From Patescibacteria group bacterium (GTDB lineage Bacteria; Patescibacteriota; Patescibacteriia; GWA2-46-9), in NCBI GenBank assembly GCA_041660005.1, contig JBAZXG010000005.1:4064-68063 (forward strand): a DNA stretch of 64,000 bases. The letters run 5' to 3'. Positions 10,192-62,686 of this stretch are shown piece by piece. The first letter of the stretch is position 1. The number at the start of each line of letters is the position of its first letter. The notes under the pieces are model-generated. The model saw only the letters and a list, made by a program, of their open reading frames with translations, made no database searches and had not been told where the DNA came from. Both the position numbers and the translations under genes were made by a program.

Positions 10192-10360
10192 AATAAATGG
10201 TATTAACCCAAGGGCAAACCCCTGGATTTCTCAATCCGCCAGTTGGCGGATTGAGAAAGAAAGCGCGGCTGGTCCGCGCGGGGTATTAAACCCTTTGACG
10301 CCTGCGCCGCACAGAAATACAAACTGCTATTTGCACTTCGCTCACTATCCTCGGCAATAA
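10192..10360 (-). repeat. Copy 1 of ~170-nt structured intergenic repeat (minus orientation)
   Basis: Reverse complement of the elements at 33990-34159 and 46370-46537. It contains a perfect hairpin CTCAATCCGCC-AGTT-GGCGGATTGAG and a GCGCGG-ACCAG-CCGCGC hairpin. It fills the hpf-secA intergenic region and ends 18 nt before the secA GTG. Confidence 0.8.
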
Positions 10361-33989: not shown

Positions 33990-34159
33990 CTTATTGCCGA
34001 GGATAGCGAGTGAAGTGCGCATAGCAATATGCATTTCCGAGCGACGCAGGTATCAAAGGGTTTAATACCCCGCGTGGCTATGCCACGCTAACTCTCTCAC
34101 TCCACCAACTAGCGGGTTGAGGAGTCCAGGGCTTTGCCCTGGGGTTAATACCATTTATT
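33990..34159 (+). repeat. Copy 2 of ~170-nt structured intergenic repeat
   Basis: Begins TTATTGCCGAGGATAGCGAGTGAAG and ends GGGGTTAATACCATTTATT. It has hairpins TGCATA-gcaa-TATGCA, GCGTGGC-TAT-GCCACGC and CCAGGGC-TTT-GCCCTGG. It starts 6 nt after the stop of the 32608..33984 gene. Confidence 0.8.
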
Positions 34160-40223: not shown

Positions 40224-43200
40224 TTAATGATTCTGCCCGTTACGCCTACCTCTCGTGTAGTAATAGTACCAGAGGTAGAGCAGGATGAGTAGAATAGGAA
40301 GCCACCAGTACCAACACAGCGAGAAAATGGTGTAACACCCAGGGCCAGACGGTACTGCTATAGGTGGTGTGTCCTGATTAAGGTTGTCACCAGCTCCAGT
40401 CGGACCCGTAGTGCTCTCACCTGAGCCAGATTGCCCGCCTTGTGGCTCTCCGCCAGTGTTACCACCCGCGCCACTGGTATCAGTAACACCAAGTACTTCA
40501 CCCGAGGGCTGCCCGCCTGTTGTCGGAGGCGGGGTTGTGCCACCACCAGTACCAGGACCTGTTTCAACACCGAGAACTTCTCCACCAGGAGGTGTTCCAC
40601 CACCAGTATTTTCGCCGCCTCCAGTTGTTGTGTTCGTGGTGCTTGCAAGTGTAACGTTGGTTGATTTAATGGTCGTACCGCCGCCTGCATTTCTGAATTT
40701 TGCATACACGGTCTTGAGGCCGTCGCCAGAAACCAGAACCCATGTACCTGATGTGGATGCCGGCTGGAAACCAGGTGAGTCGCTCAGATCTGAAAGGTTA
40801 CCTACAGCAATTTCCGTTACGTCCGGACCGTACGTGAAGAGCAAATGCACGTTTGGTGAAGTTACGCTCGTCCCTTCAGCAACGGCTACTGCGACAGTAT
40901 CGTAGTTAGGCCCGCCTGGCGTAATACCGCTGCCGCCACCTCCACCACCGCCGCCGCCCCCGCCGCCACCTCCACCACCACCGCCGCCACTAGTAGTCGC
41001 GAAGGAGAATTCAGCGCTTACGGTTTCCGGAACTGTTGCGGAAATAACGCGGTAGTAAATAGTCGTCGCCGCTGGTAGTCCGCTCAGATTCACGCCATGC
41101 GAAGTTAGTTTTGTCGAATCAGTCGGTGATGTTGAGCCGTAGTTATAGTTTGGTGCGCTCCCGAGTGTTCGCGATACTGCATCGTAAACAACGCGGCTCG
41201 TACTCCCTCGATCAGTATTCCAACTAATCGTGGCGCTACTCGTGGTGATGGCGCTCGCAGCGACATTACTAATAACCAGATCAGGGTAGTTACCAAAAGT
41301 CATGGTATTATCAGCGTCGTCAAGCGTAACTTCGTCAGCCGCACTGAGATTGGTAACCGTAACATCGTACGAGACCGTCTTATTCAGGTCTGCGCCTTCA
41401 CAACCATCTATTGAACAGACAAGCGTAAAGTCTTTACCTGAGAGCGCAGGATACGTACTTGCCCAGCCATGCTTATTCCCCTCGAGCACACGATAGGTGC
41501 CAGTAGTCGGTATGGTAAGGTCAACAAAACCGTCGGCGTTTGTGCTGCCAAGAGAGGCAATAGTGACCGTTTCAGTGGTACCGCCCTCAGTTTCAATGGT
41601 TACAACTTTACCAAGAGCGATTTGCCAACCTTCTACACCGTTTTCTCCCTCTTCTCGTGTACCATTGCCATTATCGTCTGACCACTTCTGAACACGAACG
41701 TGAGGCAGCTTGAAGTTCCCAAACTGTAAATCGAGGCTTAAAGACTCCCCATTTTGTCCGGTGGAAACCGTACTGCCACCTTCTGCAACCGTAACGTCAT
41801 ACGTTCGACTTGTTTCAAGAGTAACTCCGTCGCAGCCGGAAACGGTACACGTTACTGTGTAATCACCCACTGCGTTAACCGCTGGGCTTGTTGTCTGCCA
41901 GCCATCAGCTTTGGCTTCAAGAACACGGTACGTACCGGTTCCTGAAACCGTGAAGGAGAAATTACCGCTCTCATCAGTCTGCACAACTTGTAGAACCGTC
42001 AATGGTGTTGGATCGCCCGAATGAGCTGGCTCGCCAACTGATGCCAAGGCGATTGTCCAGCCGGCAATCGTCGATTCACCCTCTCCGTAAACGCCATCGT
42101 TATTGGCATCATTCCATTTAAGTCCACTGATTGTGGAATCCTCGATGTTGCCAAATTGAATCGTATGCTCGCTGTTATCGAGAGTAACCGTACCGCCGTC
42201 GGGCTGTGTTGTGTCGACCGTTACATCAAAAAAGGCGTTGGTGTCGAAGTTGTGTACATCACAGCCGAGAACTGAGTCGCCACAGGTAACTGTTTGGTTG
42301 ACGGTTTGTGAGCCGGGCATGATTCTACTCCAAGCAGAACGCAGCTCTTCAAACACGCGGTAGGTACCACTTGATAGAATTGGGATGGAGAAAGAACCGT
42401 CGGTACCCGTTAAACTGAGCGCGGTTATTTCAACCGGCACGGGCTCGTCCCCCTCTGAGGAACCAATTTTTCCGAGGGCAATCTTCCAACTCTCAATGGC
42501 GCTCTCCAAAGGACTGCCATCCCAAACACCGTTGCCATTCTTGTCGTTCCACTTGTGGCCACCAACATTCCAGTTTGAGTCGCAAGCGTCACCGATGTGG
42601 TCAGTGTCAGTATCGGCCTGGTCACTGTTCGCTACAAGCGGACAGTTGTCGCCAGGAGGAATCGCTAAATCTGTAAATACGCCGTTTCCGTCATCAGTCT
42701 TGTCAGTGACTTCGTCATTGTCGGCATCGGTGTCACAAACGTCACCAATATAGTCGCTGTCAGTATCTGTCCGCAGCGCATTTTCCGTAAGCGGACAGTT
42801 ATCGCCACCGTCGACCGAATCAATCGCAGTGAAAGTCCCGTCTTCGTTATCAGTTTTATCGGCAACGCCATCGCCGTCGCTGTCAGCATCGCAGACATCA
42901 CCCTTGCCGTCGGTATCCTTATCGCGCTGGTCAGGGTTGGCAATCGTCGGACAGTTATCTTCACCGTCAACAAAGCCATCACCGTCCGTGTCAACATCTA
43001 CAAATTTATTATTGAAGGTGCAGTTAACATTGTCTCCGGCTGCTACATCAAGATGTAGAGGATCGTACGTTGTTGCACTGTCGTTAATGGTGCAGCTAGA
43101 ACTCGTCAGCTCCCATCCGCTCGCATTCGCTTCGGTAACTGCATAGGAACCGGGCAGCAAGTTAGCGTAAGTGTGGGACTGACCGTCAGAGAGTGATTGT

Positions 43201-46046
43201 TCGTCCGCGTCATTCAGTGCGAAAGTAAATAACCGTGGCGAGTCAGCAGGGTCTGTGACCTTGGTTACGGTTATTGATGCAAATTTAACATTGCCAAAGT
43301 TACGATTGGGATGAGTGAGGTCACCGGTTGACCCTGAAACGAGGTAAGTTCCGTTGTCTTGCCCGCCAAGACCGGTCTCGGCCGTTGGTGCTGTTTGGTG
43401 CCAGCCATCCTGTTGAATCTCTGAAATAATGTACTCACCTGGACCAAGGTTGTTAAACTGGTAATTACCAGAATCGTCTGTTTGTACTTCACAATACTCG
43501 CCGCTGACAGTCGCTTCTACTGTCTTTCCAGATACACAAGTTGGTGCGCTCTCTGAACCAGCGAGGTCAAGACGGATCGTCCAACCGGGCAGATTAGGAT
43601 CAGCTCCGAGCGTGCGTACTCCATCAGCACTCAGGTCGTGATACTTCTTCCCGGAAATTGAGAAGAGTTCAAAGTTACCAAAGTCTTTTCCCGTAATGTC
43701 CTTTTCTTCACCAATGGTAACCAAATAAGTGCCAGAAGCAGGATAAGTCTGAGTCCATCCGCTCTTTACGGATTCTGAAAGAGTATAGCCGCCAGGGGTA
43801 ACGTCTAAGAACGAGTAGTTACCATTTTCATCCGTAGTCGCTGACTGGGTTGATCCGCTACCAGCCAAGGTGATTATCCACCCTTGAAGACCCGGCTCAC
43901 CAGCGTCCTTAGCGCCGTTACCGTTGGTGTCTCTAAATTTCATGCCCGAAACTGAACCGAGCTTCGTACTGTTGTAGGTACAGGTAATGTTGGAGCCCGC
44001 AGACAATGAAAGCGCGGACGGGTCCTGACCATCGGTGCAGGTCGGGGTTGAGTCAATAGTAAACCCACTTGAAGCACTACCGACGAGACTATAAGTAGTA
44101 TCTGGCAGTAAGCTCGGGAAGGTGTAGGAATCGCTACCCACTAATGAATGCGATACTGTTGTGCCGCCGCTTGGTGTTAAATCAAACGTAAACGTACCAG
44201 CGTCACTCGGGTCAGCAACGTTAATGACCGTGATCGTTCCGCGCTCTGCGTTCGAGAATGTGCATGAAAGGTTTTGACCAGCACTAATCTCAATGTCGCT
44301 TCCGGGAACATAGGTTACGTCACCACAAATCGCTGCCGTTAAATCCCAATCAGTGACATCGCTTTCGTTCAATGCGTATGTACCCGGCAAGAGACTGCCA
44401 AATGTTCCGGTTTCCCCGTTTTTTAGTGATGCAATGCCAGCCGATTTTCCACTGAGGGTAAAGCCAAATGCCTGTGTGGACGCTGACGGATCTGCATTTT
44501 TGGTTACACTGATAGAACCCAATTCGACATTCCCAAAATCAAGATTGTTTATAATGTCGTCATCAGCAACCGGCTGAGTATAACCAAATCCAGTCAAACA
44601 AGTTGCTCCAGCCGTTGGATAGGTCTGTTGCCAACCTGCAGGCACCGTTTCACACACGGTGTAGGTGCCAGCAGCCAATCCAGAAACGCTATACTCGCCC
44701 AAAGCATTTGTCGTAGCCGTTGCTGGTGTTGGACCGGCCAAGGTTACTTCCTGGCCAGAGAGTGGCGTACCGTCGTTGTTGATGCCGTCAGCATTAAGAT
44801 CGCTGAAGACTGCTCCATTAATAACTCCATTATTTTTCGCCGGCGGCTCACCTGCTCCCCAAACCGTAACATCGTCTAAGCGAACAATTTGATCGCTCAC
44901 CGGAGAATCAATTTCAAAACGTAGAGCAAAATTTGGGTTATTCTCTGCCCCGGCAAGCGGCCCAAATGATGTCCACACCAAATAGGGTTCAATGTTTTTT
45001 CGCGCTTCCAGTTGCAGCCAGGTAGTTCCAGCGTCAACAGAATAGTAAGCGCGCAAACCTTCGCCTCCGTGTTTCATTTCGCTAACGCGCCGAGCATACG
45101 CCACATGAATACCTTGGGTTACACCCGCAGTACTAATAACTTTACTAATGGCATCGCTAACGCCATGGGAACGATTAAGCTCGACACCATACCCCTTATC
45201 TGGAGTGTTATCGTCGGTGTAGTACTTTCGCTCATTTATCGTTTTCCCTTTTCTAATAACCGGATCATTTTCAACGGTCCAGTTGTTCGGCAGAGTATCA
45301 ACGGTATTAGCTTCAAACCCATCGTAAAAAATAGGGGGATTTAAGCCATACACTTTAACATTATCTATACCAACCTTGTCGCCATTAACACCCATCAAGT
45401 AAAACTGCAGCGACAACATGGCGTGACGGTCAGAATTTTCAATCGTATAGGTTGTCACCGTATGTGTTGGTATGGATTCAGTAACCGTTTCCAGTGCAAT
45501 GTCTGGAACAACGCTCCAGGCGTTGTATAGTGGGTCTTCAAAAGAATACTGAGAAACAAACTGACTTGTCGTCAGAGGTACGGCAAATTGAACCTTGCGA
45601 GAATATTCAACAACCAACCTTGCGTATCCTTGCGTAGCAATTTCACGACCGCCGCCATTATCAAGTGATGTTTTATTTGCACCTTCAAGATAGAGCCCTT
45701 TAGAACCCTCTACCCCAACAGGAAAACCATCGATGGTATTGTCACGCTTGGGTTTCGTTGCGCCGTCCAGTATTTCCCAATTATTCGTACCGATATTCGT
45801 TGTACCTTGATCAAAGTTGTCGTTAAAAATGAGAACCGGCGCTGGTACGACCGACGCCTGAGCGATACTCGGTACCGTTAAAGAAAAATGAACAGGACCG
45901 AAACTACTCACGACCATCGTAAAGATGGTAATAGTAGTTGTTACTTTATGAATAAATTTTTTCAATGCTGTTTTGCGACCCACCGACAAACGGCTGATCG
46001 CGCCTCTCTTAATTTGACTGCCGAACTGCAGTTTTATGTGAGTCAT
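40224..46046 (-). CDS. Giant multi-domain surface adhesin-like protein (SdrD-B-like / TSP3 / FN3 domains, poly-Gly linker, C-terminal membrane anchor)
   Basis: 1940 aa with a signal/TM N-terminus. Multiple SdrD B-like/Cna-B-type repeats (NGNG..D.GE.GL.GW..TL...NG.Y.F..L.PG.Y...E....GW.QT). Thrombospondin type-3 Ca-binding repeats (DTDGDGFVDGEDNCP..DQRDKDTDGKGDVCDADSDGDG). An FN3 module. A 21-residue Gly run. The C-terminus is CWYWWLPILLILLYLWYYYY followed by RGRRNGQNH. Confidence 0.85.
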   Translation of the reverse strand: MTHIKLQFGSQIKRGAISRLSVGRKTALKKFIHKVTTTITIFTMVVSSFGPVHFSLTVPSIAQASVVPAPVLIFNDNFDQGTTNIGTNNWEILDGATKPKRDNTIDGFPVGVEGSKGLYLEGANKTSLDNGGGREIATQGYARLVVEYSRKVQFAVPLTTSQFVSQYSFEDPLYNAWSVVPDIALETVTESIPTHTVTTYTIENSDRHAMLSLQFYLMGVNGDKVGIDNVKVYGLNPPIFYDGFEANTVDTLPNNWTVENDPVIRKGKTINERKYYTDDNTPDKGYGVELNRSHGVSDAISKVISTAGVTQGIHVAYARRVSEMKHGGEGLRAYYSVDAGTTWLQLEARKNIEPYLVWTSFGPLAGAENNPNFALRFEIDSPVSDQIVRLDDVTVWGAGEPPAKNNGVINGAVFSDLNADGINNDGTPLSGQEVTLAGPTPATATTNALGEYSVSGLAAGTYTVCETVPAGWQQTYPTAGATCLTGFGYTQPVADDDIINNLDFGNVELGSISVTKNADPSASTQAFGFTLSGKSAGIASLKNGETGTFGSLLPGTYALNESDVTDWDLTAAICGDVTYVPGSDIEISAGQNLSCTFSNAERGTITVINVADPSDAGTFTFDLTPSGGTTVSHSLVGSDSYTFPSLLPDTTYSLVGSASSGFTIDSTPTCTDGQDPSALSLSAGSNITCTYNSTKLGSVSGMKFRDTNGNGAKDAGEPGLQGWIITLAGSGSTQSATTDENGNYSFLDVTPGGYTLSESVKSGWTQTYPASGTYLVTIGEEKDITGKDFGNFELFSISGKKYHDLSADGVRTLGADPNLPGWTIRLDLAGSESAPTCVSGKTVEATVSGEYCEVQTDDSGNYQFNNLGPGEYIISEIQQDGWHQTAPTAETGLGGQDNGTYLVSGSTGDLTHPNRNFGNVKFASITVTKVTDPADSPRLFTFALNDADEQSLSDGQSHTYANLLPGSYAVTEANASGWELTSSSCTINDSATTYDPLHLDVAAGDNVNCTFNNKFVDVDTDGDGFVDGEDNCPTIANPDQRDKDTDGKGDVCDADSDGDGVADKTDNEDGTFTAIDSVDGGDNCPLTENALRTDTDSDYIGDVCDTDADNDEVTDKTDDGNGVFTDLAIPPGDNCPLVANSDQADTDTDHIGDACDSNWNVGGHKWNDKNGNGVWDGSPLESAIESWKIALGKIGSSEGDEPVPVEITALSLTGTDGSFSIPILSSGTYRVFEELRSAWSRIMPGSQTVNQTVTCGDSVLGCDVHNFDTNAFFDVTVDTTQPDGGTVTLDNSEHTIQFGNIEDSTISGLKWNDANNDGVYGEGESTIAGWTIALASVGEPAHSGDPTPLTVLQVVQTDESGNFSFTVSGTGTYRVLEAKADGWQTTSPAVNAVGDYTVTCTVSGCDGVTLETSRTYDVTVAEGGSTVSTGQNGESLSLDLQFGNFKLPHVRVQKWSDDNGNGTREEGENGVEGWQIALGKVVTIETEGGTTETVTIASLGSTNADGFVDLTIPTTGTYRVLEGNKHGWASTYPALSGKDFTLVCSIDGCEGADLNKTVSYDVTVTNLSAADEVTLDDADNTMTFGNYPDLVISNVAASAITTSSATISWNTDRGSTSRVVYDAVSRTLGSAPNYNYGSTSPTDSTKLTSHGVNLSGLPAATTIYYRVISATVPETVSAEFSFATTSGGGGGGGGGGGGGGGGGGGSGITPGGPNYDTVAVAVAEGTSVTSPNVHLLFTYGPDVTEIAVGNLSDLSDSPGFQPASTSGTWVLVSGDGLKTVYAKFRNAGGGTTIKSTNVTLASTTNTTTGGGENTGGGTPPGGEVLGVETGPGTGGGTTPPPTTGGQPSGEVLGVTDTSGAGGNTGGEPQGGQSGSGESTTGPTGAGDNLNQDTPPIAVPSGPGCYTIFSLCWYWWLPILLILLYLWYYYYTRGRRNGQNH

Positions 46047-46369: not shown

Positions 46370-46537
46370 TTATTGTCGAGGATAGCGAGTGAAGTGCGCA
46401 TAGCAAATATGCATTTCCGAGCGACGCAGGTATCAAAGGGTTTAATACCCCGCGTGGCTATGCCACGCTAACTCTCTCACTCCACCTAGCGGGTTGAGGA
46501 GTCCAGGGCTTTGCCCTGGGGTTTTATACCATTTATC
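46370..46537 (+). repeat. Copy 3 of ~170-nt structured intergenic repeat
   Basis: Near-identical to copy 2 (TTATTGTCGAGGATAGCGAGTGAAGTGCGCATAGCAAATATGCATTTCCGAGCGACGCAGG...). It lies in the 536-nt region between the giant gene start and the CAP-domain gene stop. A TATAAT hexamer lies immediately upstream (46363-46368). Confidence 0.8.
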
Positions 46538-61474: not shown

Positions 61475-61597
61475 AGATGACTTAGATTATAGCACGACTT
61501 TTATTAACTACCGAAGTCAATAAAAATAGCTAACATTAAAACTAATAACTTGTAGGTGTTCATAAATCAACAACCCATCCGCAGGTGGTCAAGAAAG

Positions 61598-61680
61598 GAA
61601 CTTTTATTGCCGAGGATAACGAGCGAAGCACAAACTACAGTTTGTATTTCCGAGCAACGCAGGCAACAAAGGGTTTTATG
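61598..61680 (+). repeat. Partial (5' half) copy 4 of the structured intergenic repeat
   Basis: TTATTGCCGAGGATAACGAGCGAAGCACAAACTACAGTTTGTATTTCCGAGCAACGCAGGCAACAAAGGGTTT. The hairpin is ACAAACT-aca-GTTTGT here versus TGCATA-gcaa-TATGCA in copy 2, a compensatory replacement. Confidence 0.7.
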
Positions 61681-61693
61681 TCATGTATTACGA

Positions 61694-61735
61694 TTTTTAC
61701 ACCATTTTGTGCGTACGCACAAAATGGTGTAAAAA
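61694..61735. promoter_or_regulatory. 42-nt perfect palindrome (core TTTTGTGCGTACGCACAAAA)
   Basis: TTTTTACACCATTTTGTGCGTACGCACAAAATGGTGTAAAAA is perfectly self-complementary. It shares a 20-nt core with the palindrome at 62647-62686. Confidence 0.7.
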
Positions 61736-61982
61736 TTGAAAAACTCAAAAAGCAATAATACCAATTAACTCATTTCAGCTTTGTTTCGTTATTTTAAGGA
61801 CTCAACTAATCAATTACCCCACCCCAGGGGGGACGGGATATGTAATGGTGATCCCACTTCGCTGAGTCAAACTCATTTCCTTCACTTAAGCTACGGACGG
61901 TCAAGGAGCTACGAGGGATATTTTTGTCTTCTGCAACAGTAACCTCGCGGCAAGCCGACGAGGTATTGGGGACAAAAATAGA

Positions 61983-62639
61983 CTACCTTGCAGCTAAACT
62001 AAAATGCTTGCAATACTTGGCATCATCTTCAATTTTTTCAACAAGCGCATACGTTAAGTTGTCCGTTAAGTGGTAATGACGTCGCAACATCACAACTAAC
62101 TCATAACAATCGTAGGGGTATAAATAAACACTTTTTTGTATCTGCAATAGGCCAACGCGCTGCAGTGTCCGGCGAATGCTATTTCGAAATTTATGTTCTG
62201 TTTGTGGAATATCGAAAATAACTAACCTCCATTTTTTGTCCCATGTCTTTTTCATTTTAGGACGCCAGTGTGAAATACCAACAGCATCGAGCTTGTCTTT
62301 CCCCTTCTTTGTTAACTCAATAAGTTGTTCACCGTGCAATTTACGAATACGTATATACCCATGTGTGGCTAACCGACTAATTGCCGACCTCATATCAGCA
62401 ACCGTGAATTCGCGAGCATGCTTTTTGCGTGGTTTTGCAAAAAGAACCATGGCATTTGGTGCAAGGACAGCCACAGAAACTACCCCGACGACCAACACAG
62501 TCTTTAAAATATATGGCAATATATTCTGACGACTACTTGAACCAAACTGCATGTCATCATTTAAAATTTTATCAATTATTGATTGATTGAACTTTGTTTC
62601 TTTCTTTTGAGCTGTGGCTTGTTTGTTTATTTTTGTCAT
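61983..62639 (-). CDS. PaaX-like (Cas2-fold C-terminal domain) putative transcriptional regulator, membrane-anchored
   Basis: 218 aa with one TM (ILKTVLVVGVVSVAVLAPNAMVLFA). The C-terminal WDKKWRLVIFDIPQTEHKFRNSIRRTLQRVGLLQIQKSVYLYP resembles the PaaX C-terminal domain. Confidence 0.45.
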   Translation of the reverse strand: MTKINKQATAQKKETKFNQSIIDKILNDDMQFGSSSRQNILPYILKTVLVVGVVSVAVLAPNAMVLFAKPRKKHAREFTVADMRSAISRLATHGYIRIRKLHGEQLIELTKKGKDKLDAVGISHWRPKMKKTWDKKWRLVIFDIPQTEHKFRNSIRRTLQRVGLLQIQKSVYLYPYDCYELVVMLRRHYHLTDNLTYALVEKIEDDAKYCKHFSLAAR

Positions 62640-62646
62640 AATATCA

Positions 62647-62686
62647 TTTTACATATTTTTGTGCGTACGCACAAAAATATGTAAAA
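62647..62686. promoter_or_regulatory. 40-nt perfect palindrome (core TTTTGTGCGTACGCACAAAA) 8 nt upstream of the PaaX-like start codon
   Basis: TTTTACATATTTTTGTGCGTACGCACAAAAATATGTAAAA is perfectly self-complementary. Its core is identical to the 61694-61735 palindrome but the outer arms differ (ACATAT versus ACACCAT). Confidence 0.7.

Follow-up and report, generated by a model that had tools for sequence, protein, structure and literature searches.

The closest described relative of the system considered here is PaaX, the phenylacetyl-CoA-responsive repressor of the paa operons in E. coli and Pseudomonas, in which a winged helix is followed by a Cas2-like middle domain (PF20803; fold 8a39). 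E. coli PaaX binds TGATTC(N27)GAATCA, that is, two inverted boxes about 27 bp apart in an operator spanning 39 bp, and by occupying that site it sterically blocks, and so represses, its own promoter (PMC9493321). The subject of this work is a stretch of 64,000 nt from a Patescibacteria group bacterium (contig JBAZXG010000005.1, positions 4,064 to 68,063; the whole stretch is called the window hereafter), and in it a small gene for a PaaX-like protein, named mini-PaaX here, which is bracketed by two long palindromes. Patescibacteria have tiny genomes with very few recognisable regulators, and to our knowledge almost nothing is known about transcriptional control in this group. We predict, with moderate confidence, that the palindromes are the cognate operators of a repressor encoded between them.

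The features on which this proposal is built are given below, in window positions; L001 is a lake-metagenome contig that carries the orthologous locus.

61983-62639, minus strand: mini-PaaX gene, 218 aa, with an N-terminal hydrophobic helix (residues ~41-67), a predicted winged helix (~77-123) and a Cas2-like PaaX_M domain (~131-202)
62647-62686, no strand: upstream palindrome, perfect and loopless, 40 nt, full sequence TTTTACATATTTTTGTGCGTACGCACAAAAATATGTAAAA, of the form TTTACA-N26-TGTAAA with the core GTGCGTACGCAC; proposed primary operator, overlapping the promoter of the gene
61693-61736, no strand: downstream palindrome, perfect and loopless, 44 nt, with identical core; proposed auxiliary operator
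62646-62651, minus strand: candidate -10 box TAAAAT, formed by the last 5 nt of the upstream palindrome plus one more, 6 nt before the ATG and kept in L001 (TGTAAAATGATAGTATG)

Sites around the gene and their promoters

The original prediction, made from the letters of the DNA, described two perfect palindromes that share a 20-nt core and differ in their arms, and the sequence check bears this out, the common core being TTTTGTGCGTACGCACAAAA. The one given as 42 nt long (61694-61735) is indeed perfect, and one more A/T pair extends it to 61693-61736 (44 nt). A palindrome does lie just before the start codon, with 7 nt between it and the ATG; since the gene is on the minus strand, this upstream palindrome is the one at 62647-62686, and its partner at 61693-61736, 246 nt past the stop, is the downstream one. 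These are the two longest palindromes of the window and the only loopless ones, the remaining ones having arms of 15 or less, loops and a terminator-like appearance. The 12-nt centre GTGCGTACGCAC has no third occurrence within the 64 kb, where its best further match is a single site with two mismatches, at chance level.

The species representatives of GTDB were scanned with one peptide pattern and 570 confirmed relatives were obtained, the best 80 of which are nearly all labelled Patescibacteria. The layout was then counted at 78 GTDB Patescibacteria loci. Around the gene, perfect palindromes with arms of at least 15 occur at 23 times the density found in the rest of these loci (32 against 8; p = 8e-20). 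When imperfect sites are included, scored as inverted repeats of about 38-40 nt with at least 14 of 19 pairs, 55 of the 78 loci have one upstream and 48 have one downstream, compared with about 7% of 1006 control windows. The two sites of one locus are identical to each other at a median of 84%, whereas the value between loci is 37%, and paralogues of a single genome have different outer boxes (L080/L081; L006/L011/L015; L012/L013). In a profile of 102 sites, positions 2-4 and 9-17 from the centre are highly symmetric, with a dip at positions 5-8, and 59 of the sites have the central hexamer CG[AG][CT]CG. A conserved centre, lineage-specific outer boxes and often asymmetric linkers make up the pattern that would be expected of an operator contacted by a protein. 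Because the linkers are often asymmetric in the relatives, perfect symmetry is no requirement of the family.

The genes beside mini-PaaX in the relatives do not cluster into families and are found on either strand, so that the site-gene-site arrangement constitutes a self-contained unit; on the same grounds, a conserved partner gene or a regulated neighbour was rejected. The idea of terminal inverted repeats, or of a flip-flop element, was also discarded: once imperfect sites are included, the asymmetry of the linkers reveals copies that are mostly in direct repeat, and the central dinucleotide flips independently of them (L026, L006, L013, L035). At L012, L064 and L072 the upstream copy has the central AC/GT dinucleotide in the opposite orientation to the downstream copy. 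Permissive pairwise alignment of the short AT-rich flanks was uninformative, the shuffled control reaching 0.77 identity. Our literature searches found no paper that connects PaaX-like proteins with Patescibacteria or with these palindromes; the module is widespread in this group and is not described in the literature searched.

The operator reading is preferred because the site-gene-site layout recurs in nearly all relatives, with matching copies at each locus. The geometry of the sites also agrees with the PaaX operator, both in the window, where TTTACA-N26-TGTAAA consists of two inverted 6-bp boxes, and in the family, where symmetry peaks at positions 9-17. The upstream sites are adjacent to promoters. 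Further support comes from the orthologue in L001, which keeps palindromes with the same core on both sides, from the match of the protein to PaaX in domain and fold, and from the solo copies of this core, which are confined to intergenic DNA of related genomes. A -10-like box is found within 25 nt of their gene-facing edge in 21 of 54 cases and of their distal edge in 7 of 54 (p = 0.004), and for the extended -10 (TGnTAnnnT) the counts are 14/54 and 1/54, respectively (p = 4e-4). The TAAAAT of the window was not flagged by a simple sigma-70 scan; taken as a -10 box, it would imply a leaderless or near-leaderless mRNA, and the upstream site would cover about -47 to -8 of such a promoter. The sole other intergenic piece conserved between the window (61475-61510, minus strand) and L001 (10929-10959) is the promoter of the S8-peptidase gene, 93% identical over 31 nt, with an extended -10 TGCTATAAT placed 11 nt before the ATG. 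Together, both promoters suggest that leaderless or near-leaderless mRNAs are perhaps common in this lineage. The autoregulatory operator pair, one of the readings offered in the original prediction, is the best supported of them, in view of the recurring layout with genome- and paralogue-specific sites, the span of the PaaX operator and the position of the upstream sites against -10 boxes.

According to the mechanism proposed, a mini-PaaX dimer would hold its winged helices at a distance of about three helical turns and read the outer boxes TTTACA ... TGTAAA, and the GC-rich conserved centre would be read by a conserved part of the protein. As the upstream site would cover its own promoter, binding there would shut off the mini-PaaX gene, which would be negative autoregulation. 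The downstream site, lacking a promoter of its own, would most likely be an auxiliary operator that loops out the gene of about 0.9 kb or serves as a roadblock or insulator, and the few solo copies at other intergenic places would represent a small regulon.

The same palindromes could also be RNA hairpins acting independently of the encoded protein, by control of translation at the 5' end and by stabilisation or termination of the mRNA at the 3' end, and a hairpin or bidirectional-terminator role had been suggested from the start. The predicted single-strand folds are highly stable (-21.6 kcal/mol, z = -6.5, for 62647-62686; -28.1 kcal/mol, z = -6.9, for 61693-61736), compensatory changes in the arms preserve pairing, and in several relatives the downstream site comes 0-6 nt after the stop. 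However, neither palindrome is followed by a U-tract on the gene strand: the arms are AT-rich and then continue into A-runs, and the terminator scan flagged nothing on the minus strand and only the upstream palindrome on the plus strand, on which no gene runs into it. A -10 box at the palindrome edge would leave the upstream palindrome untranscribed with the gene, and in most relatives the stems would have 3-5 mismatches, clustered at positions 5-8. Besides, RNA structure gives no reason for the upstream and downstream copies to match or for paralogues to have distinct sequences. For these reasons we regard a role as RNA hairpins as quite improbable, and terminators on the gene strand as unsupported.

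The mini-PaaX protein

The original prediction of a 218-aa protein with a PaaX/Cas2-fold domain and a hydrophobic, anchor-like segment agrees with the analysis of its sequence. PaaX_M (PF20803) is its sole Pfam match, at residues 131-202 (E = 1.2e-17; 64 bits against a cut-off of 24), and a hydropathy peak with a Kyte-Doolittle mean of 2.42 is found at residues 48-66. Hydropathy exceeds 1.6 at the same place in 33 of 48 relatives, and the N-terminal hydrophobic helix is likely a membrane anchor. An AlphaFold (AF2) model built on the 48 relatives has an overall pLDDT of 81 and is confident from about residue 80 on (pLDDT >88), where a helix (80-92), a beta-wing (96-109) and a second helix (111-123) are seen. 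Foldseek comparison of the model with solved structures gave E. coli PaaX (8a39) as the best match, the PaaX-like 3l09 and 3kfw next, and then Cas2 proteins and AspA.

None of the Pfam winged helix-turn-helix (wHTH) families matches the 218-aa protein above cut-off. A hidden Markov model search of the PDB sequences gave weak matches of the winged helix to AspA (E = 0.002), TubR, MarR, PadR and the PaaX wHTH, in weak agreement with the fold comparison. The effector domain PaaX_C (PF08223) has no match in the Pfam search, and the protein stops at residue 218, directly after PaaX_M; the PaaX model TIGR02277 failed, with 33.7 bits against a cut-off of 264.55. The protein is probably a PaaX type reduced to a winged helix and a Cas2-like dimerisation domain, devoid of the effector domain and with a hydrophobic helix in front.

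These matches bear on another explanation, in which mini-PaaX is a membrane-anchored DNA binder of the centromere or tether type, similar to AspA, TubR or ParB, and the palindromes are anchoring or nucleation sites instead of operators. AspA and TubR are the best PDB sequence matches of the winged helix, and AspA appears again in the fold search; the hydrophobic N-terminal helix, the bracketing of the gene by the sites and the small number of solo sites would also suit such a role. On the other hand, the AspA and TubR matches are weak and the fold match of the whole protein is PaaX, several paralogues with orthogonal sites coexist in one genome, the upstream sites are linked to -10 boxes, and no partner ATPase is conserved beside the gene. 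We consider a tether the least probable of the explanations discussed here.

In GenBank the gene at 61983-62639 is labelled 'CRISPR-associated endonuclease Cas2' by PGAP, and the same label is carried by relatives, e.g. a Levybacteria protein. The name was given because the NCBI cas2 model TIGR01573 is just passed, by 2.5 bits (27.0 against a cut-off of 24.5), on a match of 37 residues (137-173) that covers positions 2-39 of the 96 of the model; the Cas2 models of PADLOC give partial matches only. The protein is not a stand-alone Cas2 fold of about 90-100 aa, and no CRISPR-like spaced direct repeats are present in the 64 kb, where cas1 was not explicitly searched for. The immediate neighbours of the gene encode an S8 peptidase and a TPR protein, and no paa genes are found near it. 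The Cas2 label is a mislabel for mini-PaaX.

Age of the unit, solo palindromes and neighbouring elements

A protein 75% identical to mini-PaaX is encoded in the lake-metagenome contigs L001-L005, where the same nine genes (S8 peptidase, GtrA, epimerase, glycosyltransferases) come after it. The comparison of orthologous loci that had been proposed with the original prediction shows that the palindromes are retained around the gene: the L001 locus has three perfect 38-nt palindromes with identical core, two of them upstream, 223 nt apart, and one 85 nt past the stop, the nearer upstream one lying 8 nt ahead of the ATG. Compared with the window, their arms are changed at positions 11-13 from the centre, in a symmetric way. 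Both upstream palindromes of L001 (9732-9769 and 9955-9992) are identical and share about 15 nt of 5' flank, and AT-rich non-coding DNA lies between them.

The unit aligned between both genomes (window 61977-62685; L001 9955-10663) shows far less synonymous divergence than its surroundings. Identity at four-fold sites is 0.68 in the mini-PaaX gene against 0.22-0.33 in all 8 syntenic neighbours, and the proportion of synonymous differences (pS) is 0.44 against 0.74-0.86; in codons 41-80, which encode the hydrophobic helix, the third positions are 80-90% identical. The GC content at third codon positions is 0.36 in mini-PaaX and 0.42-0.49 in the neighbours, the unit being more AT-rich. Nucleotide homology with L001 starts at the upstream palindrome, and synteny ends exactly there. 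An overlapping antisense gene is not supported as the cause of the low synonymous divergence, given that the antisense frame of 133-154 codons in both genomes reaches at least 100 codons in only 28 of the 78 relatives.

In 12 other syntenic pairs the four-fold-site identity of mini-PaaX equals that of its neighbours, with no excess conservation. This indicates that the family is normally inherited vertically, the unit shared by the window and L001 being a local exception which looks as if the palindrome-bounded unit had been exchanged once; a generally mobile family was rejected for the same reason.

Such an exchange brings in the explanation that the palindromes are the boundaries of a cassette exchanged or recombined between genomes. 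After DNA uptake they would provide short arms of homology, or else they would be hairpin or cruciform sites for the Cas2-fold protein, and the solo palindromes would be dispersed, REP/RAYT-like derivatives. This is compatible with mini-PaaX also binding the sites. In addition to the low synonymous divergence of the unit and the start of homology and break of synteny at the upstream palindrome, it is favoured by the family genes without conserved neighbours, by the solo palindromes at other intergenic places, by the comparison of L041/L042 with L059 (872-920), where 92% identity stops 11 nt past the downstream palindrome, and by the perfect symmetry of every copy through compensatory changes, as expected for a hairpin or cruciform role. 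However, gene and neighbours are equally diverged in the 12 other pairs, the unit occupies the same place in the genomes of the window and L001, and most relatives have asymmetric linkers and direct, not inverted, copies. No recombinase or HUH domain was found with Pfam and NCBIfam, the copy number is low (2 in 64 kb), and assembly artefacts at a repeated palindrome could account for the breaks in L059 and L079. Exactly at the downstream palindrome of L079 (4498-4667) the contig turns back onto its own sequence, which may be a rearrangement or an assembly artefact.

Cassette boundaries are, in our judgement, unlikely, yet they carry more weight than the other alternatives. The recombination sites of a cassette of about 1 kb, as originally suggested, stand as far as the low synonymous divergence and the synteny break at the upstream palindrome are concerned, and fall short with regard to vertical inheritance in the 12 pairs and to the remainder of a truncated intergenic repeat (copy 4, listed below), which does not resume past the unit. 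A more far-reaching version would make the unit a self-contained, REPIN/RAYT-like but non-HUH element, whose Cas2-fold/winged-helix protein would act on the hairpin or cruciform of the flanking palindromes, keep their symmetry, seed the solo copies and let the ~1-kb cassette swap between distant Patescibacteria; this we hold to be improbable.

The metagenome scan with the 20-mer core gave 14 loci. L095 is L001's own contig and L098 is the distal upstream palindrome of the same locus, and in L088, L090, L094, L096 and L099 the bare 20-mer lies inside coding genes of unrelated organisms. The remaining ones are perfect palindromes of 34-40 nt, intergenic, from the same lake samples and with no PaaX-like gene nearby. 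The core is therefore not common, as it is found at only about six other intergenic places, which favours the original prediction. The neighbours of the solo palindromes are an ABC-transporter operon, a PyrD-like/Nramp pair, a membrane protein, a SufB-like gene and small membrane proteins, and no common functional theme was seen among them. Beside solo palindromes in L087 (13500-13900) and L097 (1520-1640) there is GC-rich, structured-looking non-coding DNA, without Rfam match, that may represent unannotated RNAs; one of these stretches follows a TTGACG-17-GATAAT promoter. Rfam gave no match in the window or at the solo sites.

Three further elements are located around the unit.

61737-61785, minus strand: flank on the gene side of the downstream palindrome, with TTAATTGGYATTATTG..., conserved in the alignment with L001
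61919-61980, minus strand: nested inverted repeat with a 10-bp outer stem and a CCTCG/CGAGG inner stem (-27.6 kcal/mol, z = -3.5)
61604-61679, plus strand: copy 4, truncated, of an intergenic repeat of about 170 nt; it ends 13-14 nt before the downstream palindrome

The nested inverted repeat had been reported just past the gene stop and the fold analysis finds it to be real; it is possibly a terminator or a small insertion. About 165 nt within ~61790-61980, from the stop to the conserved flank and including this repeat, are absent from L001, and no further copy of the stretch was found in the sequences examined. The ~170-nt repeat has four copies in the window, at 10192-10360 (minus), 33991-34159 (plus), 46370-46523 (plus) and 61604-61679 (plus, truncated). 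It consists of a conserved 5' half with a covarying hairpin and then three terminator-like hairpins, it has no Rfam match, and its orientation with respect to the flanking genes varies. In copy 4 the palindrome stands in place of the hairpin half; copy 4 and the palindrome had been thought to abut directly, which with 13-14 nt between them is not strictly so. Simple insertion of the unit into copy 4 was rejected, because the half that copy 4 lacks does not reappear beyond the unit. A similar junction of half-repeat and palindrome, 9 nt earlier, occurs at an unrelated locus, upstream of the SufB-like gene (L093, 1634-1700). Elsewhere in the window, a short CCG/CCA-rich tandem repeat (40927-40986) lies inside an open reading frame of 1940 aa (40224-46046); as this frame is on the minus strand, the repeat probably encodes a Gly-rich low-complexity tract.

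Several observations weigh against the operator reading. In the protein, the winged helix has no evident first helix of a helix-turn-helix, and the N-terminal segment is below transmembrane-like hydropathy in 15 of the 48 relatives. With regard to promoters, -10 boxes beside the solo sites are not above background (7 of 22 edges, background 22%), and the downstream sites show no promoter enrichment at either edge and often face convergent genes, so that the role given to them is conjecture. The low synonymous divergence of the unit relative to its flanks suggests an extra process of recombination or exchange. Finally, all 10 copies of this core (8 distinct) are perfectly symmetric, though positions 11-13 from the centre vary (ATA, TGG, TTG, TTA, ATG, AGG), and full symmetry at variable positions would not be predicted by simple selection on an operator. 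Selection on a hairpin or cruciform form is a possible cause; symmetrising mutation, such as template-switch 'quasipalindrome' correction, may be an alternative source.

Significance and comparison with known systems

The mini-PaaX family is abundant, its 570 confirmed relatives having been retrieved with a single peptide pattern, and the gene of each member is accompanied on either side by a long cognate site specific to its genome. As these sites are obvious, regulons could be predicted by plain motif search and specificity could be examined in simple binding assays. Besides, the systematic Cas2 mislabel can inflate the CRISPR inventories of Patescibacteria genomes, and in this lineage the fully symmetric sites and the anomalously young cassette pose small but concrete puzzles of palindrome maintenance and local gene exchange.

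With regard to the layout of the sites, auxiliary-operator looping (lac O1/O2, gal OE/OI, deo) offers a parallel, since there too a primary operator at the promoter has a matching second site hundreds of bp downstream. In mini-PaaX, however, the gene of the regulator itself lies between the two sites, the second being beyond the stop codon, and both looping and tetramerisation are putative.

Like REP/REPIN sequences and their RAYT genes, the unit consists of a single-copy, vertically inherited gene flanked by cognate palindromes, with further intergenic copies; the sequence of the palindrome is specific to each gene clade, and stems are kept by compensatory changes. Unlike them, it has no HUH/Y1 (IS200/IS605-like) transposase, Pfam and NCBIfam showing only PaaX_M, Cas2-like and weak wHTH matches; the copies seen are few (two in the 64 kb and about six intergenic loci in related metagenome contigs), the flanking ones are mostly direct, and in most relatives the symmetry is bipartite and operator-like.

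Cas2, a protein of CRISPR adaptation, has in common with mini-PaaX the ferredoxin-like beta1-alpha1 core and the conserved Asp of the 'VIFDI' strand, whereas the similarity of mini-PaaX is limited to 37 residues, its domain is fused to a predicted winged helix and the 64 kb contain no CRISPR array.

Compared with PaaX itself, mini-PaaX is shorter (218 aa against about 305-316 aa) and lacks the PaaX_C effector domain, it has an extra hydrophobic N-terminal helix, and among the loci retrieved the family does not occur outside Patescibacteria. Its site is palindromic throughout, the GC-rich centre included, and a second one is present downstream of the gene. Repression of the PaaX type is a known kind of control; what appears to be new here is a truncated and probably membrane-anchored PaaX-type repressor with fully palindromic putative operators that bracket its own gene.

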